Origin: a bacterium
Lineage (GTDB): Bacteria; Fidelibacterota; Fidelibacteria; Fidelibacterales; Fidelibacteraceae
Length of the DNA: 64,000 bases
NCBI GenBank assembly: GCA_963676395.1
Contig: OY781066.1
Location: 960,001 to 1,024,000 of the forward strand
Direction of reading: 5' to 3'
A program made the translations under genes and the position numbers. The notes beneath the pieces were generated by a model. It worked only from the letters and a program-made list of their open reading frames with translations, was not told the DNA's origin and ran no database searches. Each line of letters starts with the position of its first letter. Within the stretch, counting starts at the first letter, position 1. This document shows, in pieces, positions 37,707 to 56,111 of the stretch.

Positions 37707-37712
37707 TTTGTC

Positions 37713-37759: not shown

Positions 37760-37873
37760 ATTCATGAGACAGAGAAATTGAAACGCCTCTATCCACAGAT
37801 CTCGAAAATTTAAAAAATAATATGTTTTTCAGCACCAGTGTGCATAAATTGCTTATAACAAAGAGGAATAAAT

Positions 37874-38547: not shown

Positions 38548-38644
38548 TATCGTATCATATCGTATATTATCGTATCATTTTTAAAACTATTTACATTATT
38601 TTAATATTTGTATCGTATCGTATCATATCGTATATTATCGTATC
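38548..38644 (+). repeat. Two exact 29-bp direct repeats built of TATCG pentamers upstream of the Fic gene
   Basis: TATCGTATCATATCGTATATTATCGTATC at 38548-38576 and 38616-38644. Confidence 0.9.
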
Positions 38645-38670
38645 GTTTTAACAAAAAGCAATAAGATATT

Positions 38671-39714: not shown

Positions 39715-39814
39715 TAATTTACGATCTTAAACCATAAACATTAAACGTTTACGCCCCCGCTCGGAACGAGAGCATGAGTGTAAGTGAATACGATGGTACG
39801 AAATTCAACCTCCC

Positions 39815-40002
39815 GATCGTACTACGTACTGTCGTACTTTCGCACCCTCGAAATTCTCAATCGCACGCTCTTCCCCACCTGCTCTCGTACGCTCGTTTTG
39901 TGATGCCCGTCACACAATCAATCACAACACATCTGCCTACTGCTTACCGCCTACACTCTGCCTACCGCCTAGTGCATAGTGCATAGTGCATAGTGCCTAC
40001 TG
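39815..40002 (+). repeat. Mosaic of short degenerate tandem repeats (TCGTACT-like, CTGCCTA-like, GTGCATA x3)
   Basis: Read directly; for example agtgcat agtgcat agtgcat agtgcct at 39971-39998. Confidence 0.75.
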
Positions 40003-40011
40003 ATCCTTAAT

Positions 40012-40085
40012 TCCCTGATTTCCAACAATTTAAATTACTATTTGCAAAGTTCAGCTAATTTCCACATATTGTTCCTTTAATTAAA
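40012..40085 (+). promoter_or_regulatory. Repeated ~74-bp promoter-bearing leader, module A copy 1
   Basis: TTGCAA-17 bp-CATATT; similar copies at 40892 and 47884. Confidence 0.7.
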
Positions 40086-40096
40086 TTCAAAATACT

Positions 40097-40867
40097 ATGA
40101 ACGATTTAGCAATTATTCAAAAACAGCTTCAAACCCATTCCGGTATTACAATTCAATCTTTAAATGAATTGGAACTGTATAAAAATAAGTTTTTTCTTTA
40201 TAGGGGTAATATTGTTCTTGTATACATAAGAGATCAATACTCTAATTCCAAGAATAAAAAACACAGAGAGTATAAATATCATATTACCAACTGTAAAACC
40301 CTTTTGGAGATGGCCAATAATGATCGATTTGATAGGTATGTTATTTCAACCCGAATTGATGGATATTTTTTGATAAATTTGCGGGATGTCGAAACACATA
40401 AATTAATTAAAAAAGGAGTTGTAGAACATTTAAACGTATGTAAAAATTGTTTGTTAAAACTTGGCTACCGTGGTTATAAAAATCATAAAGAGGATAAGAA
40501 TATTTATCATAACTTTAACTTCAATGACTTTCTAAAAGAGAATTATACTTTCTTTAAACAACAGCCTAAATATAATAATTTTAATGCACCTCAAGACGAA
40601 TACACGAAAGATTTTGAACAAATATCATATTCATTTAGGGCAATAAATGATTGGCGATGCAGTAACTGTGGAATTGGGCTTGAGAATAATAAAGAATTTT
40701 TAGACACACACCACATCAATGGTATAAAATCTGACAACAATTTAACTAATTTGGAATGTTTGTGCGTATGCTGTCATGCTAATAAATATCTCCATGATCA
40801 TATGAAAAAATCAAAGAAATATGCAACCTTCATTAACAAATTGATGAAGGGAGGTAAGACAAAATAG
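40097..40867 (+). CDS. HNH endonuclease, ZorE-like
   Basis: C..C...HHINGIKSDN...NL..LC..CH HNH; N-terminal blocks VYIRD, YHI..CKTL.EM...RF.RY, RIDG.F, L.VCKNCL..L.Y.G resemble Zorya II ZorE as recalled. Confidence 0.75.
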   Translation: MNDLAIIQKQLQTHSGITIQSLNELELYKNKFFLYRGNIVLVYIRDQYSNSKNKKHREYKYHITNCKTLLEMANNDRFDRYVISTRIDGYFLINLRDVETHKLIKKGVVEHLNVCKNCLLKLGYRGYKNHKEDKNIYHNFNFNDFLKENYTFFKQQPKYNNFNAPQDEYTKDFEQISYSFRAINDWRCSNCGIGLENNKEFLDTHHINGIKSDNNLTNLECLCVCCHANKYLHDHMKKSKKYATFINKLMKGGKTK

Positions 40868-40891
40868 AATTTTCTCAAATAATCATCGAAC

Positions 40892-40965
40892 TCCCTGAAC
40901 ACCAACTAATTAAATTATTATTTGCAGAATTCGACTATTATCTACATATTATTGTCATGAATTAA
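40892..40965 (+). promoter_or_regulatory. Module A copy 2
   Basis: CCCTGA..CCAAC..ATTAAATT..TTTGCAG-17 bp-CATATTATTGTCATGAATTAA. Confidence 0.7.
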
Positions 40966-41108
40966 TAAATAATCAAGCAAATGAAACATTTTATGTTTAT
41001 AGTGTTTTATAATAAAGCTATCGAAATAATAACGTTGGAGTTGGTATGAAAAAAATGAACATGTCGATAATTAGTATAAGTACTGAATTAATTTAAAGGA
41101 AAATTATT

Positions 41109-41474
41109 ATGAATTGTACAATGGACTATGAAATATTTATTAGAACAGCGTTTGGGTATACCACAAATAAAGGTGAAATAATCAATCGCTGGGATGATCC
41201 CGCTGGATTAGCGACCACTGATATTTTTACTCTAGATAATATCTTCAGTGTTAAAGCTGCAACAAGTTATTGTATGGAAATATTTTCTCATGCAATAATT
41301 AATAAACATGGTGAAAATATTAATGATGCCGAACATTCACGGCTTAAGGATTTTACAAAAAAAATTCTAAATGCCAAAGATCTTGATACAATATGCAAAT
41401 TAATTAATGAGTATAATGAAACTGTTATTAAGAAATATTTCGATTTTAATAATGGCATTATTAATTTGAGATAA
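41109..41474 (+). CDS. Hypothetical protein
   Basis: 121-aa AT-rich ORF with AAGGA RBS. Confidence 0.6.
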   Translation: MNCTMDYEIFIRTAFGYTTNKGEIINRWDDPAGLATTDIFTLDNIFSVKAATSYCMEIFSHAIINKHGENINDAEHSRLKDFTKKILNAKDLDTICKLINEYNETVIKKYFDFNNGIINLR

Positions 41475-41994
41475 CTGTTATAGCAATTGTATTAAATAAT
41501 TCATTTTCCCAGCAAATTACAAAATACTTGTACCTAAAAGAAAATGCTATATTTTATTTGAATACAAATAAAATATGTTACAAATATGCGATTATATTCT
41601 CATTTTTTCTTATTTCGTCACCTTGGGCCTCATTCATTACTTATACCTCTCCTTGTATTCTAGTACCGTGAATGGCGCCAGTTAAAAAGCGCTGGCTCTG
41701 AGCGCTGAGAAAAATCCCTTCAATATATCCCCCATTTTCAATTCTTGCTTCTCCCCCCATCATTACCAACAATTGAAAATTGACAGAGGACAATTGACAA
41801 TTAATTGGTCAATCTTAAATGGATAATTATCTGTGTAATCTGCGAAATCTGTGGATATAATTTGTTTTATTTTCTTCTCCCATTCTTCCATTTATCGTTC
41901 ATCGTTTATAGTTTCTTCCGTTGACTTTACCCCATCAATTCCTCAAATTGCACTTGCTTAAATTATTAATACCTGCAAGCGGAAAAGGATAAAG

Positions 41995-43011
41995 ATGGAT
42001 AAAAGAATCGACCTTATTTTAAAGAAAATTAAACTTACTGAAAAACAAAAACTGTGGTTACAAGTTTGCTATGACTTTTTTAGTATTGGTAAGAAAACAA
42101 CAGATGTAAACATTAGAGTTGCTTTGTATAATAAAATCGATAAAAAATTCAATCCAAAATTAATAGACCAGAAATTGCTTGATAACGGTAACAGAATTAC
42201 TCTCCTTGGAGTTTTGTATCTAGATAAAACAAATACAATTTTAAACGATGCAAATAAGCTGATTAATCTTATTAGAAAAATGATTTTAAAAAATTCGGAT
42301 TGTGAAGAATTGTTAACAGATGAATTAGCAAATATAACGGGGTTTTCTCAAATATATATAAACAGGATATTTGATCTTATTCGTGAATTTGGGTATTGGA
42401 ATGGTGCAAGTGGAAGCAATCATATTTATACTAAATATTCTATAAACAAGGAAAAGATTGCCGATTTATATTTATCTGATGACAAAATTGAAGATGTAAT
42501 TATTCAACACTACAAGTCGCTTGAAGAGAGAAGCTTATCTGATGATTATTTTGATTATTACGATCAAATTTATATTGTACATACACCTTGGAAAGAAATA
42601 AATAAATTACAGAATAAATTATTTGAATTGTTAAAAATCAGTAATGATTCGATTGATTTTCAAAATATTGGGAATACTGCACGAACAATTATGTTAAATA
42701 TTTCTGAAGAAGTATTTGATGCTCAAAAACATAAACCACAGAAAGCAGGTATAGATTTAAGTAAAGACAAATTCAAAAACAGATTACATACTTATATTGA
42801 TTCAGTACTAAGCGGAACTTCAAACAGAGAATTTAGACAGCTGGCTGAAGTTTCTATTGAGTATGTAGAAAAATCAATTGATCTTATGAATAAAACAACC
42901 CATAAAACTGATGCGGAGAAACACTTAGCTGAAGTTTGTGTAATTGGCACAATTAGTGCTGTAAATATTATTAAATTAATTGCTGAAATCGAAAATAAAG
43001 AAGAAGTATAG
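41995..43011 (+). CDS. Hypothetical protein; possible HTH region plus C-terminal Abi-C/HEPN-like helical domain
   Basis: ELANITG...YINR HTH-like; C-terminal FQNIG..AR...N..TH...A pattern. Confidence 0.5.
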   Translation: MDKRIDLILKKIKLTEKQKLWLQVCYDFFSIGKKTTDVNIRVALYNKIDKKFNPKLIDQKLLDNGNRITLLGVLYLDKTNTILNDANKLINLIRKMILKNSDCEELLTDELANITGFSQIYINRIFDLIREFGYWNGASGSNHIYTKYSINKEKIADLYLSDDKIEDVIIQHYKSLEERSLSDDYFDYYDQIYIVHTPWKEINKLQNKLFELLKISNDSIDFQNIGNTARTIMLNISEEVFDAQKHKPQKAGIDLSKDKFKNRLHTYIDSVLSGTSNREFRQLAEVSIEYVEKSIDLMNKTTHKTDAEKHLAEVCVIGTISAVNIIKLIAEIENKEEV

Positions 43012-44077
43012 TGAAATTCCACCCAAATAAAAGAATAACTAAAATTCTTATTTCATCAACCAGTAGATTCGTAGGAGAATTTATTGATAATGATTTATTG
43101 ATAACACATGCTCGGGCAAGTAGTTACAATCAAATTGAAGGAACCTCTGGATTTCATGAAAATCCATTAAGCCGTAATTATTATGTTATTGTAATGGAAA
43201 CTCCTGAAACAAAAAAAGGAACAGTAGTTATACCAAATTATACGTATATGGGTGATGCCGTTACTATTCTTATGAGTATTCTTTTCGGTAAAAGATTTGA
43301 TAATCATGGACGGATAGAAAGCACAGGTAATTTTTATTTACCGGATATATCAAGTAAAACAACTCCATGTATTTCTTCTTTAGCCTATAATAACCATAAA
43401 CCAAGAAAAAATTTAAACATAGCATTAAAATTAAATGAATTTGAAAGAATTTTTCCCTTGTTAACAGATAATTTTAAAGATGAAATATTTTTAAAAATAT
43501 TGTTTTCTGCTGGCCGTTTTTACGTACACGCACTTCAAGAAGCTGAGCAACAGCCTGCGGTGAAATCCTTTCGAATTATTATCAATATTCTGATGATGAA
43601 ATTATTGACGATGATATGAAAAAAGATTTAGAAATTATTGAAACTCAAATTGATAATGGAGACATTATTGCAAAAAGAATAAGAAACCGTTTATTTCAAG
43701 TCAGAAAAAGACACAATCTCACAATACAAAAATTACTAACATCTGATTTTTTTGCTAATTCTGAATCAACTTCCGAGTTTTTTTCTTTAACAATTGAGGG
43801 ATTCACTAAAAGAATAAATGCAGCATATGATTTGCGAAGTCTCTATGTTCATACTGGAACAGAATTTGGCCCATGGTTAACTATCGGCATGCGTGATAAT
43901 TACGAGATTAATTTGGGACAGCCTGTAATCAAAGACAAAACACTAAAAAAACTCATACAGGATTGCCCAACTTTATTTGGACTCGAAAGAATAATGAGAT
44001 ATTGCTTATTGCGTTTTATTCATTTACATGGTTGTAAAATTGATGATTCACTTGAAGGAGATGGATTAATAAAATAA
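43011..44077 (+). pseudogene. HEPN-domain (ApeA-like) gene split by a frameshift
   Basis: Frame switch near 43554-43557; the second frame is open upstream of its ATG (CGEILSNYYQYSDDEIIDDDMKK); RSLYVH (RxxxxH) at 43835-43852. Confidence 0.7.
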
Positions 44078-44150
44078 TTTTTAACTATTGTAATTTAATG
44101 TAATTTATTGATAACTTTATTTGAAGAACTGATAACTTAGAAAGAATGAA

Positions 44151-44435
44151 ATGACAAGTAAAGCATATATAATAAGTTATGACCTAAATTCACCTGGGCA
44201 GGATTATTCTAAATTATATGAAAAAATTAAAAGTCTGGGCAAGTGGTGGCATCATTTAGATTCCACATGGATTGTTAAATCTGATAAAAAAGCATCTGAG
44301 ATTAGAGATTATCTTGCTGATTATTTAGATAAAAATGATGAACTGATTGTTATAAAATTAGGAGATTCATGGGCAGGCATCGGGTTTGAAAAGAGAGCTT
44401 ACGATTGGCTTCATGATAACGCATATGAGAAATAA
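44151..44435 (+). CDS. Small Cas2/VapD-like ferredoxin-fold protein
   Basis: YIISYDL....QDY..LY..IK.LG.W.H.LDSTWIV; D..D.LIV. Confidence 0.65.
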   Translation: MTSKAYIISYDLNSPGQDYSKLYEKIKSLGKWWHHLDSTWIVKSDKKASEIRDYLADYLDKNDELIVIKLGDSWAGIGFEKRAYDWLHDNAYEK

Positions 44436-44438
44436 ATA

Positions 44439-44963
44439 ATGATATTAAACTTTGAAACCATAGCTTTAATCGTATCCATAACATCAATAATTTTGGCTAT
44501 TGTATCATTACTGTTTTCCGTAATATTTTATTGGTGGTCAAACAAATCAAATAGACAAACTTTTGAGTTATCAAAAGAAATTGAACAAAACACAAATAGG
44601 ATTCATGAATTATTTAATAGATTTTATTCTGATACCTTTGGTTTAATGAAAAGCAATTATTTGGCGATGCAATCTAGTATTTTCAGCCAGCAAGTAAGTT
44701 CGGGTGATTCTTCTTTTTCCCCAGAGGAACAGATTGAAAATATTATTATTTCTCTGTTGTTAAAGTCAAAAGTGTTAACACGTGAAAATATTTGCACTTA
44801 TTTTGAAAACACATATCCATCAAAGCAAATTTCACGACAATCAATTTTGGACGCAATAAATTCCCTTAAAGATAAAAACAAAATTTTCATTAATGATAAT
44901 TTGATTTCAATTTCTACTGAAAAAAAATCTTCTTCTAATGAAGATGAGAGCAATAGTTCATAA
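44439..44963 (+). CDS. Membrane-anchored hypothetical protein with possible C-terminal winged helix
   Basis: One N-terminal TM helix, coiled coil, C-terminal AINSLKDKNKI.I...I.I pattern. Confidence 0.6.
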   Translation: MILNFETIALIVSITSIILAIVSLLFSVIFYWWSNKSNRQTFELSKEIEQNTNRIHELFNRFYSDTFGLMKSNYLAMQSSIFSQQVSSGDSSFSPEEQIENIIISLLLKSKVLTRENICTYFENTYPSKQISRQSILDAINSLKDKNKIFINDNLISISTEKKSSSNEDESNSS

Positions 44964-44971
44964 TACCTTCC

Positions 44972-45461
44972 AAACTCTGTTCCCTTGCTTTTAGTAAACA
45001 TTCCACCTATATTCTTTTACCTGAATCTGTGTGGCGCAGTGAAATGGTTCCTATGAAACGTTTTCCGTTTTTCAAGATCATATTACTAAGCCTGGTCATT
45101 TCCCCGGTATTTTTAAGCGGGTATTCGCGGACGGCACGTTATGATGCGGTGATATCGCGGGAGGGAGAGCGCCGGTGTTTCAGGATGACGATTCTTTTTG
45201 TTATTTAGATTATCCCAGACCTCCATTCTCAACCCTTGATCCTCCCCCGCATCATTACCTATATTCATTTAGCCGAGAGGCTGTGTGGCACACTTCAAAG
45301 AACACTGGGCGCTGAGCGGTGCCTGCCCTGCGTAGCCTTGTGCGAAGCAGGGGGCTCTGTGAAAGGGTGCGTATGAAAACGACTCCATTTTATAGATCTA
45401 TTTGCTAAGCCTTGTCATTACCCTGCTTTTTTTGTGCGGGTGTTCGCGGGCGAAAAATTGA
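44972..45461 (+). pseudogene. Two tandem degenerate copies of promoter module B plus 5' stub of a lipoprotein gene
   Basis: MKRFPFFKIILLSLVISPVFLSGYSR (from 45053) versus frameshifted ...LLSLVITLLFLCGCSR (ATG 45373); each preceded by TTGxTx-17/18 bp-TATATT and CTGTGTGGC. Confidence 0.55.
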
Positions 45462-45823
45462 AAATTGACCAGCCTCCTTCGCCAGCTGGCGGATTGTTAA
45501 TTATAAAGAAAATGCTGCTTATACTCTTCTTTGACCCCTCGAAATCAATAAAAGTCATTAATTCCGAATCATGATACTTGGAAAGGTCGCGCCTCAGCGG
45601 CGACGCGTGAAGAAAATCCGATGAGGTAGGCTTTGATCGTTATCGGGGTGCTTTGAGTTCTGTCACATACTAAATAATATTCATCTATCCTGAATCCATA
45701 ATACTGAGCACGTATAATAAATTGAATGAATATAAAAATTAACAATTAATCAATTTAAACTTTTGTCGTGCTTCTATTTTTCATTATCTTAATTACTACA
45801 AACAACTAGATATTGGATAATGT

Positions 45824-46771
45824 ATGAATTTTAAATCAACTACCTATGTATTACTTATTGCGATCGCGCTGACATTAAGTGCTTGTAATAGTGAAAATCC
45901 TTTTGACTTGGACAATGTTATCGCTGCGCTTCCGGCTGATACGTTGTTAAGTATTTCAACTTATGACGGCAGTGGCCAAGCAGTACATCCTGATATTATA
46001 TTATCAAATAACATTTTTTATCTGGCAATTACGCCCTATCCTTTCAGCAATGATTCATATGAAAATCCCTGTTTATATTCCAGTATTGATGGCCTTGAAT
46101 TTAATCCTTGTGTATCAAATCCTTTAGTCAAGACTCCGAAAAACGGCCATAATTCTGACCCTGATATATTTATTGACAACAGTGGAATTCTGAATATTTG
46201 TTATCGTGAAAGCATATCAAATGATGCAGACAATATAATCTTGCTAAAAAACAAGGGGAATTTACGCTTCAGAAGTTCGACCATTCTTCATTATCCAATA
46301 ATTGACCCCAAAAACAGAGTATTATCTCCTTCTATAACCTATTATCAGGATCAATATTATTTGTTTTACATGAGAAAATATGAAATAAAATACCTAACCA
46401 GTTCTAACTTGGATTCTTTGGATAAAACCAATGAGCATGATATTAATATTCATATGCCGGAAAACTACCGTTGTTGGCATGTGGATGTATTCAAAGCACA
46501 GGATACAGATGAATATTATATGCTTTTACACGGTTATTTGGGAGCTTATAATTATTCCCTTACCTTTGCTACCAGCACAGACCTTACTAACTGGACCGTT
46601 CAGGGCGAAATTATTAATAATGATAATTTGACGGATGAAGAAGCTTGGTATGTGTATCGCTCAACGGGGATTGTAAATAATAATATCCTCGTGATTTGGT
46701 ATTCGTATCGAACATACAACAACTATTGGAAATTGGGTTTGAAAAAGATCGATATCAATACTTTATCATAA
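45824..46771 (+). CDS. Lipoprotein, probable beta-propeller glycoside hydrolase-like fold
   Basis: LSAC lipobox; HPDI, ENP....S.DG..F, SDPD, SPS, WHVDV, ATSTDL.NW. Confidence 0.65.
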   Translation: MNFKSTTYVLLIAIALTLSACNSENPFDLDNVIAALPADTLLSISTYDGSGQAVHPDIILSNNIFYLAITPYPFSNDSYENPCLYSSIDGLEFNPCVSNPLVKTPKNGHNSDPDIFIDNSGILNICYRESISNDADNIILLKNKGNLRFRSSTILHYPIIDPKNRVLSPSITYYQDQYYLFYMRKYEIKYLTSSNLDSLDKTNEHDINIHMPENYRCWHVDVFKAQDTDEYYMLLHGYLGAYNYSLTFATSTDLTNWTVQGEIINNDNLTDEEAWYVYRSTGIVNNNILVIWYSYRTYNNYWKLGLKKIDINTLS

Positions 46772-46962
46772 CTTTAATGTGATTATTCAATTTCTAAAAC
46801 AAAATTTTGCATAGTTACAAGACATTATTTATTTAATCGTGATAATTTCACATTGAAATATGACGCAATATCGGGTTAATTTAATTACTCATAATAAATA
46901 TAAACCCCATCTACCCGGCAACTATTAATTGTTAAGCGATAAAACCATGATGGGGAATAAGT

Positions 46963-47394
46963 ATGAAATCTCAATATATCGCACCCTGCGGGATGAATTG
47001 TGCCTTGTGCATCGGCTTCATTCGTGAGAGAAACAAGTGCCATGGTTGCAACGAACACGATCAGTCAAAGCCCGAATACTGCCGTTCCTGCAAAGTCGTT
47101 GTCTGTGAAAAACGCAAGGCTTTGCCGCTCGGGCCGGGGGAAGTTGTTGCTCTGTGCTACGACTGCCCTGACTTACCGTGCGCGCGCATCAAGCAGCTGG
47201 ATAAACGCTACCGCGCCCGCTATTGGATGTCCATGATGGAGAATTTGGCGTATATTAAGGAGCATGGAATGGTTGCGTTTCTCGCGCGGGAAGAAAAACG
47301 ATGGAAATGTACTTCTTGTGGAGAAACATTGAGCGTTCATCGCACAGAGTGTCTGCAGTGTGGTCACCCGCGCGAAATTATGAATGATGGATGA
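46963..47394 (+). CDS. DUF3795-type Cys-rich protein
   Basis: IAPCG.NC..C, C..C, CY.C...PC, C-terminal C..CG...HR..C..CG. Confidence 0.8.
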   Translation: MKSQYIAPCGMNCALCIGFIRERNKCHGCNEHDQSKPEYCRSCKVVVCEKRKALPLGPGEVVALCYDCPDLPCARIKQLDKRYRARYWMSMMENLAYIKEHGMVAFLAREEKRWKCTSCGETLSVHRTECLQCGHPREIMNDG

Positions 47395-47880
47395 TGGATT
47401 ATGAATAAAGTGACTGGACAGGTCACCGATCACTATATTCTGGATTCCGGCTTCTGATAAGACGGTTCCCTTCCACCCAAGAATATTCTCCTGGATCTGC
47501 CACGCCTCTTCCCTGTCCGCCGACTTGTGCGTCGAATCGGTCGACTGGCGGAGAAAACGGAAGCTTTAGCGAAGGCTGGAATTACAAGCATTTATATGAC
47601 GTAACATGTGACGTGCGACGCACTCGTTACGAGTTACGAGTCACGAAAAAAGTCATAAAATACAAAGAATTATCGTAGGAAAAGCTATCAGCTATTCAAG
47701 ACGCATTTGCTGATTGCTGAAAGCTATTTGCTGAAGGCTATCCCGAGCTTTAGCGAAGTTGAGCGAAGGCGGGTTCGCCTCCCCGCCTCCCAAATTGTGA
47801 TCCCCGTCACACTTTTAACAAATAAGTCTTATTCATCCTCTTAATTGGCTGTTTGCTGTAAGCTGTGGGCTGATAGCTAT
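47385..47880. repeat. Dense spacer of heptamer arrays and REP-like palindromes
   Basis: ATGATGG x2, GTTACGA x2, AGCTTTAGCGAAG x2, TCCGCC...GGCGGA, and a 27-bp exact copy of 37494-37520 at 47687-47713. Confidence 0.75.
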
Positions 47881-47883
47881 ATT

Positions 47884-47957
47884 CTCCTGATTTCCAACAA
47901 ATTAAATTTCCATTTGTAAAGTTCAAATTTTATGCACATATTATTGTCTTGAATTAA
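47884..47957 (+). promoter_or_regulatory. Module A copy 3, upstream of the ABC-3C operon
   Basis: CCTGATTTCCAACAAATTAAATT..TTTGTAA-17 bp-CATATTATTGTCTTGAATTAA. Confidence 0.7.
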
Positions 47958-48034
47958 CTTTACATAAATTTATCTTAATTTGATATTATTCGTTAAATCT
48001 AAAAAAAGTTTAATTAACTTTTCGGAGGGTTATT

Positions 48035-48385
48035 ATGGATCCAATCACATTATCAAGTGCAGCTATTTCAATTATTACTCCTTTTATTGTAAAAACTGGG
48101 GAGGCAATAGTTCAAAAAACAGGAGAAAAACTTTGGAAATGGTTAAATATCAAGTTTAAAAAAGATGAAATAAAAACCAAAACAGGAAATATGAATACAG
48201 GTGATTTTGATATAATTAAAGGTGTAATACTTGATAAAATAAATAACGATAAAGAATTTAAAATAGCACTTGAGAAAGAAATAGAAAAAGCTAAAACATC
48301 AATATCAAAAATGACTGTTATTAATAAAGAAACTGTTGAAAAACAAATCAATATTAACAAGAATTTTGGTGATATTACTATGTGA
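48035..48385 (+). CDS. Small helical protein, Bell-domain-like candidate effector with C-terminal amyloid-like motif
   Basis: GGAGGG RBS; MDPITL + hydrophobic helix, GEKLWKWL..KF, D.EF...L; ends VEKQININKNFGDITM. Confidence 0.65.
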   Translation: MDPITLSSAAISIITPFIVKTGEAIVQKTGEKLWKWLNIKFKKDEIKTKTGNMNTGDFDIIKGVILDKINNDKEFKIALEKEIEKAKTSISKMTVINKETVEKQININKNFGDITM

Positions 48386-48408
48386 TACTATTGAAAATAC
48401 TTATTAAG

Positions 48409-48936
48409 ATGAAGCAATTAAACATTAACAAAAATTTTGGGGAAATCTATCTAGAAAAAACAACCAGATTTTCTAGCCGATTCAAGCGATTAAACGAAGA
48501 AATTGAAAAGGATCAAAAAATTGATGAAGTTATCGATAAACTTCAAACTTATAATAAATCAGCTGATTTAAGAAGTATGCCAGAAAAACTAGAAGATGGT
48601 GGTTTTTCGAAAGAAGAAATTTATCAAGCAAAATTAAGAAAACAACAATATTGGATGAGTTTTGAAAAACATAAATTCTACAAAACAGCTCAAATAATTG
48701 ATTCAGAAATATTTGCATTGTTGAAATTTAATTTTGACACTTATATTTATCCTTTAATTTTGCAAAACGAACCAAAAAATAAAATCTTACTTGAATTAAA
48801 TTCAAAAGTTATATTGCCAATATTAACATTATTGAATAAAGAAGGCGAGGAAGATACTTATCTAAACTATAGTGTTGATGATTTACTTGGCATGTTATAT
48901 TTTATTACTGGCAAGTGTCATATTAATTGGAAATAA
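48409..48936 (+). CDS. ABC-three-component/Lamassu-type CTD protein with N-terminal motif matching the upstream gene
   Basis: EKL..GG, AQ.I...IFA, I.P.I, GMLYFITGKCHINW as in ABC-3C CTD proteins (CTD6-like as recalled); begins MKQLNINKNFGEI; alternative GTG start 48382. Confidence 0.75.
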   Translation: MKQLNINKNFGEIYLEKTTRFSSRFKRLNEEIEKDQKIDEVIDKLQTYNKSADLRSMPEKLEDGGFSKEEIYQAKLRKQQYWMSFEKHKFYKTAQIIDSEIFALLKFNFDTYIYPLILQNEPKNKILLELNSKVILPILTLLNKEGEEDTYLNYSVDDLLGMLYFITGKCHINWK

Positions 48937-48937
48937 A

Positions 48938-49459
48938 ATGATTGTATATAATCAAGCTTATGATGTCTATTACACAATTTTTAGGATGATTCATTTACTT
49001 TATAGTATCAGAAAAAGTAATAGTATAGATTTGGATCGATTAAGAATTTACGATTTTTATTTATTATTTCCCAGTGCGAGTCATAACATGACTATAAAAC
49101 GTAATGAAGGTGATATTCGCCAGTTGAGAAAAGATTTGATTGACAAAAATAAAAATCCCTTCGAAATTCTTTATAACCAGAAAAAAATATTCGATAATAT
49201 AAAGAATTTTCAAATAACTTCATTAAGATGTCTATCTTCTTTTGGGCTAATAAATAATGATTTTGAAAAATCAAAGACGATTATTATTGAAGATAATTCT
49301 CTTTTGGAAGAAGCTATAGATAATATTGGGAAGCTGACTTCAAGGCAAAAAAACATGTTAATCTTTATTCAAGAAAGTTTCTCAAAATTCCCTATGACGG
49401 GCGTAGATGGAATTAAAAATCGTACCAAATTAATGGAAAGCAAGTATGATGCAGAATAA
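48938..49459 (+). CDS. ABC-three-component system middle component (MC5/LmuC-like)
   Basis: MIVYNQAYD.Y..IFR, RLRIYDFYLLFP, GIKNRTKLME.KYD; sits between CTD and ATPase genes. Confidence 0.75.
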   Translation: MIVYNQAYDVYYTIFRMIHLLYSIRKSNSIDLDRLRIYDFYLLFPSASHNMTIKRNEGDIRQLRKDLIDKNKNPFEILYNQKKIFDNIKNFQITSLRCLSSFGLINNDFEKSKTIIIEDNSLLEEAIDNIGKLTSRQKNMLIFIQESFSKFPMTGVDGIKNRTKLMESKYDAE

Positions 49460-51368
49460 CTTATTTGTAAATCGATTATTAATTTATACCGAAGAGGGTC
49501 GAATAGCTTACGATGAAGAATTCCATAAAGGTATAAACATTATTAGAGGACATAATAGTAGCGGAAAATCCACAATTACTCATTTTATATTTTTTGCATT
49601 AGGGGGTGCTTTCAATAATTTTGTTCCAGAAGCCAAAAAATGTTCTACTGTATATATTGAAATTGAAGTCAACAATGCGGTCATTTCCCTTAAGAGAAAT
49701 ATTGAGAAAGATATTTATGATAAAATTAATTCGAAATCATCTTTATACTTTTATTGGGGTTCCTTAGAAAAAGGATTAAGAAGTAGTAAGGATTGGTATA
49801 AATTTGGTTATAACTCAACCAAGAATACAAAGAGTTTTTCAAATGTGCTTTTTGAAAACATGGATTTACCTATAATATATGCTGATAATAATATAACTTT
49901 TTATCAAATTTTACGACTCTTGTATATTGATCAAGAATCTCCAACAAGTTCTTTATTTTATTATGATCAATTTGATAGTCAAATTACCAGAGAAACAGTA
50001 TCAGAAATATTATTAGGATTATATAGCAATGATCTTTACACAAAAAAAATGAGATTGAGAACAGCGAGAAAGGAACTTGAAAGTATAAATGATGAAATTA
50101 GAGTTACAAAACGATTTTTCAAGGACCCGAACTCACTTGACTCTGGGTTCTTAGAAAGTAAAATCAAGAGCCTAGAAGAACAAATATCCTCTATTGATAA
50201 TCAAATAACAAATATTCGTAATGGAAATAAAACCGTTGAATTTAAAAAAACCTCTAAGATGGAATTTGAAAATATTGAAGGCGAAATAATAAATACAAGA
50301 AAACATCTCACTGAAACAAAAAATAAAATTGCAACACTAAATAGTGAAATTGAGGATACAAGCTACTTTATCTATACTTTAAAAAGTAAAATTGAAGCGT
50401 TAAGAAATTCAATCAAAACAAGAAATTTTTTAGATAATATTGATATTGAATTTTGTCCAAAATGTTTATCAAAAATAGATTCTAAAGCAAATATTGGGCA
50501 ATGTAATTTATGTAAACAAGAAATTAGTATAGATAATACTGGAGAAGCTGAAGCAAGAAAGATTGAACAAGAAATTAGTTTTCAAATACTTGAATCAACT
50601 CAAATTCTTGAAAAGATTCAAAGAGAACGTATAGATTATAAATCTGTGTATAAAGGAATTCAAGCTAAGTTGTTTGTCCTTCAACAGAAACAAAACTCTA
50701 TTATCAAAGATGTAAAATCATATCAACAAGAAGTACTTGACAGTCTTTTTACTAAAAAAGGGTTTATTGAAGGAGAATCTTTACAGTATCGAACCATGCT
50801 TGAAAAAGCTACATTATATGACGAATTGCTTGACATTAAATACTCCTTAAAAAAAGAAATTGAGTTACTGGATAAACAAATTTTACAAATTGAATTTACT
50901 CAAAACAGGCTCAAAGTTAGAATAAATGATACGATCAAAAAAGAAGCTCTTTATTTACTAAATAATGATTTAAATCGGCAAGATGAGTTTCGCAATGCAA
51001 GTGAATTCTATATTAATTATTCAAATAATATCGCTTTTTTATCAAGTAAGTATGCAAAATACTCAGCAAGCTCTAATTTTTACCTGAAAATCACTGCGCG
51101 TTTTGCAATATTTTTAGCATCCCTATCTATTCCTGAAATGAGATTTCCTAGATTTATATTTGCTGATAATATGGAAGATAAAGGAATTGAAATAGGAAGA
51201 GCTCAAAATCTTCAAAAAGTTTTAATAAAACGTTTAAATGAGTTTGATTCCAAAAATTATCAATTGATATACACTACCTCGTATATTACAGATGAGCTTA
51301 ATGAGAGTCCTTATGTCGTAGGTGAATTTTATACTGAAACTAATCGGAGTCTTAAAAATATTTCATAA
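49446..51368 (+). CDS. SMC/Rad50-like ABC ATPase (ABC-3C / LmuB-like)
   Basis: Walker A GHNSSGKST, LYIDQ Q-loop, long coiled coils, central CPKC..CNLC, SASS signature, FIFADNMEDKG, QLIYTTS. Confidence 0.88.
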   Translation: MMQNNLFVNRLLIYTEEGRIAYDEEFHKGINIIRGHNSSGKSTITHFIFFALGGAFNNFVPEAKKCSTVYIEIEVNNAVISLKRNIEKDIYDKINSKSSLYFYWGSLEKGLRSSKDWYKFGYNSTKNTKSFSNVLFENMDLPIIYADNNITFYQILRLLYIDQESPTSSLFYYDQFDSQITRETVSEILLGLYSNDLYTKKMRLRTARKELESINDEIRVTKRFFKDPNSLDSGFLESKIKSLEEQISSIDNQITNIRNGNKTVEFKKTSKMEFENIEGEIINTRKHLTETKNKIATLNSEIEDTSYFIYTLKSKIEALRNSIKTRNFLDNIDIEFCPKCLSKIDSKANIGQCNLCKQEISIDNTGEAEARKIEQEISFQILESTQILEKIQRERIDYKSVYKGIQAKLFVLQQKQNSIIKDVKSYQQEVLDSLFTKKGFIEGESLQYRTMLEKATLYDELLDIKYSLKKEIELLDKQILQIEFTQNRLKVRINDTIKKEALYLLNNDLNRQDEFRNASEFYINYSNNIAFLSSKYAKYSASSNFYLKITARFAIFLASLSIPEMRFPRFIFADNMEDKGIEIGRAQNLQKVLIKRLNEFDSKNYQLIYTTSYITDELNESPYVVGEFYTETNRSLKNIS

Positions 51369-51619
51369 AATGATTTATTTTATTCTAAATTTGGCACATA
51401 CTGGTTGAGAACTAATTAATGGTGACAATCAAAATATTTTCCCTATATAACATTATACTCGAAAAAAAACATCACTTAGGTCAAAACTCCTAAATATTGT
51501 ATGTTATTTTTTCTAAAATACATAGAGACGATTCTATCAAGTGCCCGTAAAGCAGTAGTATATATAAACTTGTAACTGGTAACTAGAAATTAAATACCAT
51601 TCAAAGGTTATATATCTTT

Positions 51620-51684
51620 TCAATCCTTGATTCCCACCCCACCATTATTTATATTCATTTAGCCGAGAGGCTGTGTGGCACTTT
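51620..51684 (+). repeat. Promoter module B copy with 32-bp exact repeat
   Basis: TATATTCATTTAGCCGAGAGGCTGTGTGGCAC at 51650-51681 is identical to 45260-45291. Confidence 0.85.
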
Positions 51685-51758
51685 CTAGTAACTAGTGACC
51701 ATCCTTCGCTGAAGCTACGGCCGGCAGGCAAAGGACAATCATCTGTGCTTGCCGGGCG

Positions 51759-51778
51759 ACTCCGCCAGCTGGCGGAGT
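51759..51778. repeat. Perfect 20-bp palindrome ACTCCGCCAGCTGGCGGAGT
   Basis: Self-complementary; family members at 37729, 45478, 47516. Confidence 0.9.
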
Positions 51779-52048
51779 AGACTGGAAATCTATGGATAGA
51801 TATTGTATTTAACTTTCCCAAATGAAAACCCCAAATTACACTTGGTTTAAATTATAAAAATATGCAGCGAGAATCGTAAATAGAACCCAAAATTTCGATT
51901 TCATAATAGAAACTCCATCTGTTAAGCGAACGTCGACAAAACTCGATAATAATCAATGTTAATAAATATTAAGTATAATAGTATTTGTTGTCAAGCGACA
52001 ATTTTATATATTATTTAACAATAGTAAAATAATATTCGAGGACACAAG

Positions 52049-53053
52049 ATGAAAAAATCACTATGCTTATTGATCATACTCAGCTTATTTCTCTCTGCTT
52101 GCCTTTTTACACCGCCAGCAAGTGACGAAACCTTTGGCATTTATATGTTACAAAATAAAAACCTGGATATTTATGATGATCTTGAGGATGAAGTGCTCAG
52201 CAAACCTTTGGACTCCGCGGCGGTACTCACAGCGGCGGACATTGATTTTTATGATTGGTCCTCCCATTGCATCTACCTAAAAAACAACAAAGACCAACTC
52301 AAGGAACGCCTGTTGGATGACCGTGGCTTTTTAGTCAAGAACCCAGGGGCGGCCTTTGTTGTCAGTACCAATGGTGCTTCACAATACTATGGCTGTTTTC
52401 ACAGTCTGATCATGAACCTTGCGCCAACAACACCAACTATCGATGAAATGTCACTTACTTATTATCCAGAGGATGTTCTGTCTATTGGCAGATCCTGGAT
52501 CAGCGACGATCTTGATACCCGAAATAACGACGATGTAAAACAAGCCTTGATCAATGCCGGATTGTTCCATGCGGGGATCTCGGTGGAGATTGATACGGCT
52601 TTTGGACTGAATTTCTATCCGTTTGCCGGTGATTCCTCACAAATGGAGTATCGTTTTATTATTAGCAACCATGACGAGGATGCGCTCTATGTGCTGGATC
52701 CTGACAAAATTGGCACGGAACTTTTCTTTTACTTCAATGTGGCACCATCGATCTATAATTTGGATACCGACGCTTATCTGCATCCCAATCACAGTTACGA
52801 CCCGAGCATGACGCCCGATACCAGCAATTTTGATAATTTGAATTGGTACACCCTGCTGTCCTCCGGAGAATCGATAACCCGAACTGTCCGCACAGGCAAC
52901 TATACCAATGTCACTGCCGGTCGCTACGAACTTGCGCTAGATTATAGCACCCCGATTAACACCCTGAGACAAGCACGCCGAAATAAACCCCTTGGCAGAA
53001 TATGGATCGGGAATGTAAAATCTGACAAATACATATTGAGTGTTGAGTTGTAA
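52049..53053 (+). CDS. Hypothetical lipoprotein, paralog of 57229-58254
   Basis: LSAC lipobox; shared DI..YDWSSH, RNND, LY.LDP.KIG, RIW.G. Confidence 0.75.
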   Translation: MKKSLCLLIILSLFLSACLFTPPASDETFGIYMLQNKNLDIYDDLEDEVLSKPLDSAAVLTAADIDFYDWSSHCIYLKNNKDQLKERLLDDRGFLVKNPGAAFVVSTNGASQYYGCFHSLIMNLAPTTPTIDEMSLTYYPEDVLSIGRSWISDDLDTRNNDDVKQALINAGLFHAGISVEIDTAFGLNFYPFAGDSSQMEYRFIISNHDEDALYVLDPDKIGTELFFYFNVAPSIYNLDTDAYLHPNHSYDPSMTPDTSNFDNLNWYTLLSSGESITRTVRTGNYTNVTAGRYELALDYSTPINTLRQARRNKPLGRIWIGNVKSDKYILSVEL

Positions 53054-53423
53054 GAGGCGAGTAACTGAAAAAATACAAGAATCTGAAAGCCACGGTGAAA
53101 TAACTTATACCCATATGCATTTTCATGATATTCATATCATGTTTTATGCCCCGCTCAGAAACCATGCTCTCTGATTGCCCTCTCACACCTGTGGCTTATC
53201 AATATTACGATTTTTCGTACCGGGGTACAGATCTTTACAAGAATTGAACGTTAGTCTCTTGCATCCCTATTGATTTAATATCTTAATAATTTTGTCATTC
53301 GGCTAATGGGACCCGGTTCGTTATCAACTATTCATTGTAAATCTTTGCTATCACAACGTTTACTGTTTAAATTATTCTGCCGGTTTGGTAAACACAACTT
53401 AGTCACCTGACGGAGCCTGACAC

Positions 53424-54281
53424 ATGGATTTTCTTACATACGCGATCATTATATTTTTGGTCTTGGAAACCGCTAACGTTCTTATGTTATATTTTACACC
53501 GGGAACTCAGCGGGGTAATGGTCTTGGCGTATTTAAAGCCTATGAAGAATCAAAATCTGACCCCGACGTCCATGCTCTGGTAAAATATTTGATCAACTGG
53601 GTTGCCAATACAAAGTTAATCTTTATTGCCATCATGATCGTCATTATCGTGGTTGGAAATGATCACACAAAACTCTATGCCGTTGGTGCTCTTTGTATTT
53701 CTATTTCAGCCTACTATTTTTCTTTGTACCCCAATATCAAACGACTTGATGAAGCGGGCAAGATAACACCCCGTGGTTATTCAAGAACACTGTCTTACAT
53801 GATCACAGCCTTTCTTGCTATCTTTTGTCTTGCCATTATTTGGGTAGCTTTACCCAAGCTAAATAATAAACCGCTTACTATCAATGGTAGTTGGCGACTT
53901 ATCCATAGCGTTGAAATAACTGAGCAAGATACAAGTGTAACCATCTATGAAGAAGGTCGCGAATTGTATAAAATCATCAATACGGCACATTTTTCATTTC
54001 TTGAACATGATCCCAGTCTCCGACTGAACGGCATCCCCTACTTTATTGTTGGTGGTGGCCGATATACGTGCAAAGGTCAAACCTATACCGAATGTATCGA
54101 TTATTGCAGTGACCCCACGCTTCAAAATACCACGACCGTTTATGATATTGAAATAGTCGAAGATACCCTCAAATTGAAAAATATCGAAATTATGGAGAAA
54201 AACGGGGTTGACCGCTTGACGATCAAAACCTACTTAAAGATCCCGGAAGAAGCTTGTAAAGACATAAACTTAGCCAAATGA
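53424..54281 (+). CDS. Membrane protein fused to a lipocalin-like C-terminal domain
   Basis: Four TM helices, then INGSWRLI and GGGRY......YTE. Confidence 0.55.
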   Translation: MDFLTYAIIIFLVLETANVLMLYFTPGTQRGNGLGVFKAYEESKSDPDVHALVKYLINWVANTKLIFIAIMIVIIVVGNDHTKLYAVGALCISISAYYFSLYPNIKRLDEAGKITPRGYSRTLSYMITAFLAIFCLAIIWVALPKLNNKPLTINGSWRLIHSVEITEQDTSVTIYEEGRELYKIINTAHFSFLEHDPSLRLNGIPYFIVGGGRYTCKGQTYTECIDYCSDPTLQNTTTVYDIEIVEDTLKLKNIEIMEKNGVDRLTIKTYLKIPEEACKDINLAK

Positions 54282-54416
54282 TCACATCTTGCAAAAACAC
54301 ATTACGACTTTATTATATTTTATAAACCATTTTGTATATCTGAATATTTTTCCGAAACATTCCTCATATAAAAAACCTATATAAAGTGTAACATTAAATC
54401 ATCTCGGAGTAAAAAT

Positions 54417-55148
54417 ATGAAAAAAAATCTCTCGTCATTATTAATTGGTGTCTCCATCGTTCTGGCGGCCCTCATTTTAGCCAGTGCATTTTTAAACCGT
54501 AATGCCGCAAGCGAAACCATTTCGGTTACCGGCTTAAGCAAAGTTGATTTTACTTCGGACCTCATCGTGTGGGAAGCTTCTTTTAATAAAAACAATTATG
54601 ATCTTAAAAAAGCCTATACAGAGCTAGATAAAGATAAAGAAATCGTACTGGATTATCTTAAAAGCAAAGGTATCAGCGAAGATGAAATCGTTTTTTCTGC
54701 CGTAAACACACGGCGTAACACTCGCTCTAATTATTCAGACGATGGTAAATATATTGGCGATAAATTTACCGGGTATACACTGACCCAAAAAGTAGAGATC
54801 CAATCCAAAAAAGTCGAAGATGTTGAAAAGATCTCACGCGAGATCACCGAACTTCTCTTTAAAGGTGTTCAACTCTACTCCTACTCACCTCGTTATTATT
54901 ATACAAAATTATCCGACCTAAAAGTTGAGATGATCTCAAAAGCTACCCAAAATGCCAGACTACGTGCCGAAATGATCTCCGACAATTCTAATGCTAAACT
55001 TGGTAAACTATCTTCGGCAAAAATGGGCGTTTTCCAAATTACCGGTCAAAACTCAAACGAAAACTACTCATGGGGCGGCACATTTAATACCTCTTCCAGA
55101 GAAAAAACCGCTTCTATTACCGTAAAGTTGACTTACAGATCAAAATAA
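54417..55148 (+). CDS. SIMPL (DUF541) domain protein
   Basis: ISVTG, PRYYYTKL..LK..MI..AT.NA..RA, LGKL..A.MGVFQI. Confidence 0.85.
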   Translation: MKKNLSSLLIGVSIVLAALILASAFLNRNAASETISVTGLSKVDFTSDLIVWEASFNKNNYDLKKAYTELDKDKEIVLDYLKSKGISEDEIVFSAVNTRRNTRSNYSDDGKYIGDKFTGYTLTQKVEIQSKKVEDVEKISREITELLFKGVQLYSYSPRYYYTKLSDLKVEMISKATQNARLRAEMISDNSNAKLGKLSSAKMGVFQITGQNSNENYSWGGTFNTSSREKTASITVKLTYRSK

Positions 55149-55186
55149 TAAACTGACCTTATTAATTTAAATCAGTAAAAACAATG

Positions 55187-55210
55187 AAGGCGCAGAAATT
55201 GCGCCTTTTG
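55187..55210 (+). terminator. Intrinsic terminator
   Basis: AAGGCGCA-gaaat-TGCGCCTT-TTG. Confidence 0.65.
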
Positions 55211-55295
55211 ATTTTTAGGATAAATAAAAAATCATTTCCTTTATATAAATATTTGCCTTAATATATATCGTTAACAACTAATCAAGAGGCAGGTT

Positions 55296-56111
55296 ATGGA
55301 TAAAATGCGAAATAAAATTGATATTCATTTCCCGACACTCATTGCGATTTCCGTAATTGCATATATTTTGGCAGTCATTTCTTACCAATTTTTGGGACAG
55401 GCTATCGCCGTATTGTTGGTTAAAGGAAGGCTTTTAGAAGTATCTTCAACTTTCGTTCAATATGAGTTGGCGGCTAGAAACACGTTTCAAAGCAAATACA
55501 TTGCTTCCGCTGGATTTGCTGTTACCTTTTTTATTTCCGGAATTGCAGTTGTACTTCTTCAAATGCGAGCAAAACGCGATAATATAAAATACTTCCACTG
55601 GGTATTTATGACGGTAAACCTTTTAATGGCCATCAGTTGTTTTTTATTCTCTGGTCTTACCGGTTTAGGAGATTGGCATATCTTAATTGAAAGCAGCGAT
55701 ATGTATATCCTCTGGCGCTTAATGTATATTTTTGGAGGATTCTCCCTCTATATCATTGCTGTTGTCATGCCAATGAACCGACTTAATACCTATATAGGCC
55801 GTGATTCGCTAAGATCTTTGCGTGGCTTTTATTTAACCTTCGTCCCATTTATTACCGGTAGTTTAGCTGTAAGTTTACCCGGCTTTTTAAACAGCAAATC
55901 AATGAATTTGGCTTTTACCATGGGTGCATTCATCATTTTTGGCACCTCTGCCATGGCGTGGATGAGTCAATTATTTAAAACAAACATATATCCCCCTGAA
56001 CGCGGAGGTGATATTTTAGTGATCACCCCCTCAAAGAAATGGATTATTGCTGCGATCATTCTTTTCATTCTATATACCATCTTCTTCGGTTTCGGGATGA
56101 AATTCTCATAA
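55296..56111 (+). CDS. Multi-pass membrane protein
   Basis: About 7 hydrophobic segments; GDW motif. Confidence 0.65.
   Translation: MDKMRNKIDIHFPTLIAISVIAYILAVISYQFLGQAIAVLLVKGRLLEVSSTFVQYELAARNTFQSKYIASAGFAVTFFISGIAVVLLQMRAKRDNIKYFHWVFMTVNLLMAISCFLFSGLTGLGDWHILIESSDMYILWRLMYIFGGFSLYIIAVVMPMNRLNTYIGRDSLRSLRGFYLTFVPFITGSLAVSLPGFLNSKSMNLAFTMGAFIIFGTSAMAWMSQLFKTNIYPPERGGDILVITPSKKWIIAAIILFILYTIFFGFGMKFS

Follow-up and report, generated by a model that had tools for sequence, protein, structure and literature searches.

A CTD9-type Lamassu operon whose adaptor shares a terminal peptide motif with a small upstream protein, a candidate trans-encoded effector

The window analysed here is a 64,000-nucleotide stretch of contig OY781066.1 (GenBank assembly GCA_963676395.1, positions 960,001 to 1,024,000), from a 2.34-Mb single-contig genome of a member of the Fidelibacteraceae. 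It contains a four-gene operon (genes A–D, window positions 48035–51368), of which the last three genes encode components of a Lamassu/ABC-3C system and the first encodes a small protein ending in a peptide that recurs at the start of the next protein. We propose that the operon is a Lamassu variant with a trans-encoded membrane effector, which would be switched on by homotypic, probably cross-beta, stacking of the shared motif when the CTD9 adaptor oligomerises. By analogy with known amyloid-signalling pairs, we give this reading a probability of about 0.5. Whatever the physics of the link, the small upstream protein is probably the trans-encoded output of the system.

The operon and its shared motif

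In the window, the four genes follow each other closely on the + strand, which carries every element of the operon described below. Gene A (48035–48385) encodes the candidate trans-encoded effector, 116 residues with a Bell-like helical domain and the C-terminal motif. Gene B (48409–48936) encodes an effector-less LmuA-like adaptor, 175 residues from its ATG, composed of the N-terminal motif, a linker, and a CTD9 domain. Gene C (48938–49459) encodes the middle component, 173 residues and LmuC-like, while gene D (49446–51368) encodes a 640-residue LmuB-like ATP-binding cassette (ABC) ATPase of the SMC (structural maintenance of chromosomes)/Rad50 type. Genes A and B are separated by 23 nt, or overlap by 4 nt if B starts at a GTG at 48382, which overlaps the stop codon of A as GTGA and would yield 184 residues; B and C lie 1 nt apart, and C and D overlap by 14 nt. 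The coordinates and the Pfam and PADLOC matches agree with the original prediction made from this DNA, which had described a tight four-gene operon of a small helical protein, a C-terminal domain (CTD) protein, a middle component, and an SMC-like ATPase.

Searches with hidden Markov models for ABC-3C and Lamassu components matched CTD9, MC5, LmuB, and LmuC. Specifically, B belongs to Pfam CTD9 (PF20285, E = 4.6e-26, above the 27.9-bit cut-off), the domain spanning residues 58–175 (48577–48930) of the 176-residue translation used for the scan, which starts at 48406, one codon ahead of the ATG. C belongs to Pfam MC5 (PF20291, E = 3.5e-36) and also matches PADLOC LmuC (4e-5), and D matches PADLOC LmuB (E = 4.4e-33), AAA_23 (2.6e-11), and SMC_N (1.1e-4). 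The translation of D contains a Walker A motif (GHNSSGKST, residues 35–43; 49548–49574) and, in its middle, two CxxC pairs (CPKC...CNLC, residues 337–356; 50454–50513) that are kept as CPEC...CKLC in a related locus of Marinoscillum (L001). The CxxC pairs may form a zinc-hook-like element, which we presume from Rad50.

The CTD protein was predicted to be about 175 residues long and to lack an effector domain, and the Pfam, PADLOC, and NCBIfam scans bear this out. In particular, the approximately 57 residues ahead of CTD9 match no family at E ≤ 1e-3, none of the PADLOC LmuA models matches B, and the fused N-terminal effector domain usual for Lamassu/ABC-3C was not found in it; nor did the same scans find an effector domain in C or D. 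A HeLo match for B (E = 0.04, 14.2 bits against a cut-off of 23.2) was treated as noise. Three of the four features of the Lamassu/ABC-3C architecture are present, namely an LmuB-like ATPase, a middle component between the CTD and ATPase genes, and a CTD family; the fused effector is not. Judged from its gene families, the locus is a Lamassu/ABC-3C operon (CTD9-MC5-LmuB) with a CTD protein that carries no effector domain.

The C-terminus of A, KQININKNFGDITM (residues 103–116; 48341–48382), closely resembles the N-terminus of B, MKQLNINKNFGEIYL, i.e. M-KQLNINKNFGEIYL, in which the motif occupies residues 2–15 (48412–48453) as read from the translation and the pair alignment. The two copies are in register with each other and with the family motif QQNIxNNGxIEKQINIQxNSGNIQM. 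When A is aligned with B, 10 of 12 residues agree, giving a local alignment score of 57 against a mean of 18.2 and a maximum of 40 for shuffled partners (28 loci × 200 shuffles = 5600), which upholds the likeness noticed in the original prediction. The original prediction had spoken of an SMC sensor coupled to the effector through the motif; the protein that carries it is the LmuA-like CTD9 adaptor rather than the SMC ATPase. Codons differ at five of the 10 identical residues, and the two stretches were not detected as a DNA repeat with a 10-nt seed, so the likeness is one at the peptide level. The window pair is the shortest of the pairs, and the first half of the A motif is degenerate (TVINKETVE). 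A complex predicted from alignments for two copies of B residues 2–50 and two copies of A residues 80–116 scored 0.02 against a mark of 0.32, which is evidence neither way.

Neither Pfam nor PADLOC nor NCBIfam assigned A to a family, and a word-based protein search returned only A itself. A HMMER search of 1.84 billion representatives yielded 49 proteins with E ≤ 1e-3, A among them, mostly of 112–122 residues. The family alignment (A2) comprises A and 33 near full-length relatives, i.e. 34 rows; six fragments (P0025, P0033, P0044, P0046, P0050, P0051), a 602-residue and apparently unrelated repeat protein (P0030), and nine proteins with other or missing tails (among them P0034, P0036, P0037, P0049, and P0052–P0055) were dropped. 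Members are 111–127 residues long, with about 118 typical. The N-terminal consensus is M-[ED]-P-I-T-L...P-F-L-x-K-x-G-E-x-I-A-E-K-I-G-E-D-I-W, with MDPITL in the window protein, and the C-terminal consensus is Q-Q-N-I-x-N-N-G-x-[IV]-E-K-Q-[IV]-N-I-Q-x-N-S-G-N-I-Q-M. Pfam gave nothing below E = 0.006 on the 34 members.

The AlphaFold2 model of A, built from the 34-row alignment (predicted local distance difference test, pLDDT, 73.1; predicted template modelling score 0.60), comprises five predicted helices (residues 3–18, 24–40, 43–50, 55–71, and 73–91) followed by a tail, residues 95–116, that is disordered in the model (pLDDT < 50); a model made without an alignment (pLDDT 45.8) was unusable. 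The N-terminal helix (MDPITLSSAAISIITPFIV; 48035–48091) has an acidic residue at position 2, and no other 19-mer of the protein is as hydrophobic as residues 1–19 (Kyte-Doolittle 1.49, just below the transmembrane, TM, mark of 1.6). Dyrka et al. (10.1101/2020.01.06.895854) describe Bell domains as bundles of five helices, the N-terminal one hydrophobic, with an acidic residue at position 2–3, and the Babybell domain of Ibarlosa et al. (10.1101/2024.11.07.622273) has four helices cupping a hydrophobic helix 1 and a 'MEPIS' N-terminus. The described features, that is, a helical bundle, a hydrophobic N-terminal helix, and an acidic position 2–3, are all present in A.

The Bell likeness put forward in the original prediction therefore stands in part. 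The MDPITL start fits the MEPITL consensus and is MEPIS-like, and there are five helices; homology does not follow, as Pfam gives no match, the fold searches stay in the noise, and comparison with HetE-N-type proteins is negative. Specifically, Foldseek against the PDB gave no match at E ≤ 1e-3, and the best Z of VIA-align against 48,161 chains was 6.0, within helical-bundle noise. The ZAR1 coiled-coil domain (Z 5.4, rank 7), CARD, and death-like domains (Z 4.5–5.4) belong to that noise and are not counted as support. A PDB sequence search with the family profile gave only a chance row (E = 0.77), none of the 34 members matches Pfam HetE-N (PF20701), and hhalign of the family against two HetE-N-type effectors gave a probability of 0.3%.

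Motif pairs in related loci

Five relatives of B with 51–61% identity all carry an N-terminal Q-x-N-I-x-x-N-x-G-x-I-Y motif. A genome scan with the alignment of B relatives as query, over one genome per species, matched 152 stretches, from which 31 loci were confirmed. The motif pair is present in 28 of these 31 CTD9 loci, 27 of them readable and one (L002) frameshifted. In the readable loci the CTD9 open reading frame (ORF) has 174–204 residues and is preceded, at a gap of 0–10 nt or with an overlap, by a small ORF whose last 15–25 residues match the CTD9 ORF start; 26 of the 27 small ORFs encode 92–121 residues, and one is cut to 58 by the contig end. For L009, no start codon could be assigned to the CTD9 ORF. 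In L002 (4580–8000), from a metagenome-assembled genome of Chitinophagaceae, both motif copies and a homologue of the A N-domain are visible across frames; all four genes of this locus contain many frameshifts, from long-read assembly error or real decay. An MC5 gene follows the CTD9 gene in 29/29 genome loci long enough to show it, and a large LmuB-like ORF is present in 29/29 related loci (blastp to D, E from 2.5e-26 down to 0).

A second scan, over JGI/ENA metagenome contigs with the ten closest A-family members as query, gave 26 loci. In 24 of them the effector gene is directly followed by a CTD9-like ORF of 190–198 residues, as identified by alignment with CTD9 proteins, and then by ORFs of about 172 and about 642 residues as far as the contigs reach; of the other two, the contig stops at the effector in L036, and the partner is a different one in L057. 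Homologous loci, 28/31 and 24/26 in the two scans, thus carry paired motifs that change together, and so pass the sequence check set in the original prediction; the motif classes are described below. The first two ORFs were likewise not found fused: HMMER with A and a search for longer CTD9 proteins recovered no Bell-CTD9 fusion, and fused CTD9 relatives of greater length were absent at E ≤ 1e-3, which is weak evidence.

The three remaining genome loci, L013 (3116–5345), L023 (3308–5471), and L025 (2894–5210), encode all-in-one CTD9 proteins of 377–407 residues and have no motif-tailed small partner. The N-terminal region of these proteins matches no Pfam family and has a conserved SGLIFN...SSKHS, and a gene of the metallo-beta-lactamase fold precedes the CTD9 gene (Lactamase_B, 6e-10 to 5e-13 for the genes scanned, those of L013 and L023). 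These loci are a different four-gene form of the CTD9-MC5 system. The carriers of the related CTD9 loci belong to the Bacteroidota and Pseudomonadota (Vibrio, Pseudomonas, Halomonas, and others). CTD9 is rare, since it occurs in 0/400 other genomes sampled from the class of a Pseudomonas carrier (G401).

The motif falls into five classes among the related loci: class I, which includes the window, KQ-I-N-I-x-x-N-x-G-x-I; class II, G-D-I-V-x-G-D-K; class III, H-x-G-x-G-D-N-x-x-x-x-K; class IV, G-S-x-[VI]-x-G-x-[VIL]-x-x-G-[ND]-[ND]-x; and class V, V-T-Y-x-x-x-S-T-H-N-G-D-N-x-F. When the window and the 27 readable loci were scored together (28 pairs), the median own-pair score was 51.5 against the shuffled mean of 18.2. 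The own pair exceeds the 99th percentile of shuffles in 27/28 loci and the shuffle maximum in 23/28, and each of the 28 effector tails scores best with a CTD9 N-terminus of its own class. Furthermore, over 48 distinct loci, the codons differ at 239 of the 457 identical residues (52%). As half of the identical residues differ in codon, selection acts on the peptide, rather than the likeness reflecting recent duplication or gene conversion.

In class I, the effector copy and the adaptor copy can be aligned in a single register across 26 columns. Positions constrained in both copies are Q6, [IV]8, N11, G13, [IV]15, Q18, hydrophobic 19, N20, [IV]21, G26, [IV]28, and hydrophobic 30, and the column information of the two copies is correlated (Spearman 0.57, p = 0.002). 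The pattern reads as two hydrophobic-x-N-x-G-x-hydrophobic units, which may correspond to two strand-turn-strand arches. Compared with the rest of the same proteins, 96 motif segments drawn from every class are enriched in N (3.9x), Q (2.0x), and G (1.6x) and depleted in L (0.25x) and P (0.64x). This composition agrees with the bias that Dyrka et al. describe for bacterial amyloid signalling sequences (BASS) as to Q, N, and G being up and L and P down; V and I are not enriched. Set against BASS motifs (about 20–25 residues, Q/N/G-rich, poor in L and P, unstructured in the monomer), the family motif spans 26 columns, has that compositional bias, and lies in a tail with pLDDT below 50, but the window core measures only 12–14 residues and K is not depleted.

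The tail is carried by effectors of several types. At least one segment with a Kyte-Doolittle value ≥ 1.6 is present in 25 of the 28 effectors, which have one or two strongly hydrophobic segments. In L001 and L058 the class I tail is attached to a domain with two TM segments instead of the helical bundle, and these loci pair on the CTD9 tree, nested among Bell-like loci. Effectors of classes II, IV, and V are peptides with one or two TM segments (M-[DE]-x-F-W...). The class III effector of L007 belongs to Pfam HetE-N (E = 1.6e-27), and that of L017 is 56% identical to it; A and the class III effectors have no TM segment.

Conversely, P0036, P0037, P0053, and P0054 keep the A N-domain and carry other N/G-rich tails. 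In the metagenome locus L057 (608–1660), an A-type N-domain is joined to a different tail, VVHGQVIGVVQGNVEIGN, and the next ORF, an unrelated one, has a matching start, VDTVIGVVNGDANIH, matches no Pfam family, and is cut by the contig end. The A N-domain therefore serves other motif-partner pairs too. Varied membrane and cell-death heads on one type of tail, together with all-in-one relatives, are the modular pattern that Dyrka et al. report for amyloid-signalling pairs.

Proposed mechanism and alternatives

In the proposed mechanism, the CTD of B would be held in the resting state by the LmuB-like protein D and the MC5 protein C. On sensing foreign DNA, D would free B, which would then oligomerise through CTD9 and so gather its N-terminal motifs into a nucleus of stacked beta-arches, cross-beta and amyloid-like in structure. 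The nucleus would bind the tail of A, which has the identical register, and template it. Clustering of A would expose its N-terminal helix, otherwise sheltered, and the helix would damage the membrane and abort the infection, giving defence. Stacking is preferred over a lock-and-key dock because the partners are alike rather than complementary, lie in register, and fall into five unrelated-looking classes that share one make-up; partners that are alike and not complementary are what in-register stacking predicts.

The alternative that fares best, which we consider rather unlikely, is a stable dock without amyloid, in which the tails would form a fixed small heteromer, e.g. by short beta-sheet or beta-hairpin pairing, that tethers A to B. 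A and B would then amount to a non-covalent effector-CTD LmuA, and oligomerisation of CTD9 would cluster the tethered membrane domains with no prion-like spread. The pairing and the concerted change fit a dock equally well, the tight translational coupling (GTGA/ATGA overlaps, gaps of 0–10 nt) would favour co-assembly at synthesis, the window motif is short (12–14 residues), and all-in-one CTD9 proteins exist in the family (L013, L023, and L025, 377–407 residues). However, a dock needs complementary surfaces, whereas here both copies are conserved in the same residues, position by position, along as many as 26 columns. The motifs are also N/Q/G-rich and poor in Leu and Pro, as stacking motifs are, and a make-up common to five unrelated-looking classes points to a structural type rather than a specific interface.

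Several points weigh against the cross-beta reading. The cross-beta state is argued by analogy, and we found no paper that tests a CTD9-MC5 system for defence. The core of the window motif measures 12–14 residues against about 25 for BASS, and B read from its ATG has only the second half of the family motif, lacking the first unless the GTG start is used. A is Bell-like in its features, and homology to Bell domains is not established. Lys is not depleted in the motifs (1.1x), unlike in BASS. Furthermore, on a CTD9 tree built from the C-terminal 150 residues with the motif excluded (50 rows; the truncated L037 and the frameshifted L002 left out), each motif class occupies one side of a branch (5 changes, the minimum). 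Because the classes follow tree branches, the concerted change amounts to about 4–5 independent events, not 48. Within class I (22 distinct pairs, 4 duplicates dropped), the own partner is the best match in only 3/22 loci, and the own-pair mean of 55.2 against 50.6, reached by 13 of 20000 permutations, is a small excess among related loci that are not independent.

It is improbable that the small protein is not the killer and serves instead as a membrane anchor or regulator, or that its tail imitates the N-terminus of B and competes with it for one binding site on MC5/LmuB, a chaperone, or a protease. Its role would then be to determine where the complex is placed or how readily it fires, with toxicity coming from another source. 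Most partners are indeed plain peptides with one or two TM segments and no recognisable toxic domain, and competition for one pocket also predicts look-alike tails. Against this, B, C, and D contain no effector domain, which would leave the system without an output; those partner domains that are recognisable are of the cell-death type (HetE-N in class III, Bell-like features in A); swapping of N-domains with the tail kept is the pattern of interchangeable effectors; and the absence of a TM segment from A and the class III proteins speaks against an anchor in particular. That the motif likeness is due to chance, or is a relic of local duplication or gene fission without present function, is refuted, the short window repeat and the AT-rich, Asn/Lys/Ile-rich make-up of both genes notwithstanding, by the shuffles (57 against at most 40 in 5600), by recurrence of the pair in 28/31 and 24/26 related loci across Bacteroidota and Pseudomonadota, and by the codon differences at 52% of identical residues.

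If the cross-beta reading is extended beyond the window, prion-like templating may be a general, modular 'wire' of bacterial immunity that is also plugged into SMC-type (Lamassu) DNA sensors, with the CTD9 adaptor acting as an NLR-like nucleator (NLR, NOD-like receptor). The related loci would then add at least five new motif families and several new membrane-killing modules (the Bell-like 118-residue family and the 2-TM peptides) in unicellular Bacteroidota and Pseudomonadota, and 'effector-less' Lamassu systems would not be defective and would fire through a fourth gene that PADLOC models do not recognise. We put this extension forward tentatively.

Genomic setting and relation to known systems

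A Shine-Dalgarno-like GGAGGG (48024–48029), read from the sequence, lies 5 nt ahead of the ATG of gene A, and a weak sigma-70-like site (47959–47987, 9/12), not evidence by itself, lies further upstream. The operon has a G+C content of 0.25–0.28 against 0.38–0.45 in its flanks, and a repeat search found no direct repeats flanking the four genes. The operon was probably acquired horizontally, because the closest relatives are in Bacteroidota. The A family was not found in 400 other genomes of the phylum to which the window belongs. In viral contigs, no relative of the A family was found.

Upstream of the operon lie a SoFic-like Fic/DOC gene with a MarR-type C-terminus (38671–39714; PADLOC SoFic, 1.2e-42) and a ZorE-like HNH gene (40097–40867; PADLOC ZorE, 4.2e-65) with no other Zorya genes nearby. 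The low-GC stretch (0.27–0.30) that contains them resembles a defence island reaching as far as the Lamassu operon. Three overlapping or abutting ORFs on the + strand (41995–44077; 338, 202, and 153 residues), situated between the HNH gene and a Cas2-like gene, match no Pfam or PADLOC family; they may form a defence operon of a kind not yet described. The Cas2-like/DUF3884 protein has 94 residues (44151–44435; PADLOC Cas2b, 6.8e-5; Pfam DUF3884, 2.8e-5) and is followed after 3 nt by a gene for a 174-residue protein with an N-terminal TM helix and no family, the pair spanning 44151–44963; no CRISPR array or further cas gene was seen near it in the part scanned. GC-richer stretches without long ORFs (0.41–0.45; 44963–45824 and 47400–48034) separate the low-GC blocks, and in them ARAGORN found no tRNA and an Rfam scan of 36000–56000 no RNA family.

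Among SMC-based defence families, Lamassu is one of the more common, and the switching-on of its many effectors is only beginning to be worked out. CTD9 and MC5 were reportedly defined by Krishnan et al. in 2020. The window operon resembles Lamassu/ABC-3C systems (LmuA-LmuC-LmuB; DdmABC) in its order of CTD protein, middle component, and SMC/Rad50-like ATPase and in its apparent defence-island location. Li et al. (2025) show that two LmuB and LmuC sequester the oligomerisation domain of LmuA, and that LmuA, once released, assembles into cyclic tetramers, which turns the effector on; release and oligomerisation of the LmuA-like protein would be the activation logic expected here. The N-terminal effectors usual for LmuA are nuclease, SIR2, protease, hydrolase, and others, as given in PMC10586767 and 10.1101/2025.06.23.660979. 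The window CTD9 protein differs in having only about 57 residues ahead of its domain and no enzymatic effector, whereas a lipase is predicted for CTD8/9, and a fourth, upstream gene would supply a small membrane-type protein through the shared motif. No PADLOC LmuA model matches B, so PADLOC detects no LmuA component. Such systems are likely under-called, because the adaptor escapes these models and gene A has no family.

Effector-associated domains (EADs), reportedly described by Kaur et al. in 2020, are said to couple effectors to NTPase cores in trans. The window operon is like them in that neighbouring genes encode products with a module in common, by which an effector is coupled to a sensor or adaptor, and unlike them in that EADs are folded, death-like helical domains, whereas the module here is a disordered peptide of 14–26 residues.

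Another parallel is Bab/Agp (BASS11, E. coli), in which, as 10.1101/2024.11.07.622273 describes, a sensor other than an NLR signals through an amyloid motif to a Bell-type protein during phage defence. There, too, the genes are adjacent, and a protein of about 110 residues combines a small helical bundle and a hydrophobic N-terminal helix with a C-terminal motif that the next protein carries at its N-terminus. The output of Bab/Agp is abortive infection via the membrane, which for the window operon would be the corresponding output. The window motif differs in being carried by a 175-residue adaptor of a three-protein SMC-type machine. The original prediction knew such motifs beside NLR-like sensors and not beside SMC sensors; the use of such a motif by a non-NLR sensor had already been described for Bab/Agp, and what stands as new is the coupling to an SMC-type, Lamassu sensor.

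Bell/NLR BASS pairs and the fungal HET-S/NWD2 pair likewise have a Q/N/G-rich motif at the effector C-terminus and the receptor N-terminus, encoded by neighbouring genes (10.1101/2020.01.06.895854). As in the CTD9 family, all-in-one and split forms of BASS systems coexist, and several effector domains share one motif. The receptor in the systems described in that text is a STAND NTPase (NACHT/NB-ARC), whereas the window partner is an ABC-3C CTD9 adaptor, and BASS are reported there as typical of multicellular Actinobacteria and Cyanobacteria, whereas the loci here are in Bacteroidota and Pseudomonadota. By analogy, the window locus would work like the Bab/Agp and Bell/NLR pairs and is a member of neither, because its partner is neither an NLR nor a TGP protein. 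In the papers searched, which did not include Krishnan et al. (2020), we found none linking Lamassu, ABC-3C, or SMC-type sensors with such motifs; Lamassu, ABC, and SMC are unmentioned in the text of Ibarlosa et al., PMC12261475, and PMC13506858, and CTD in that of Ibarlosa et al.

If our reading is correct, a Lamassu system does not require an enzyme fused to LmuA as its output: a separate protein that attacks the membrane can serve, brought in by a peptide of 14–26 residues. If cross-beta templating is involved, amyloid-type signalling would reach a third, unrelated class of sensor beyond NLR and TGP proteins, and would occur not only in multicellular bacteria and E. coli but also in unicellular Bacteroidota and Pseudomonadota from the sea and from soil. 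The five natural, co-varying motif pairs could distinguish templating from simple docking, and annotation models for Lamassu systems should gain the small upstream gene.

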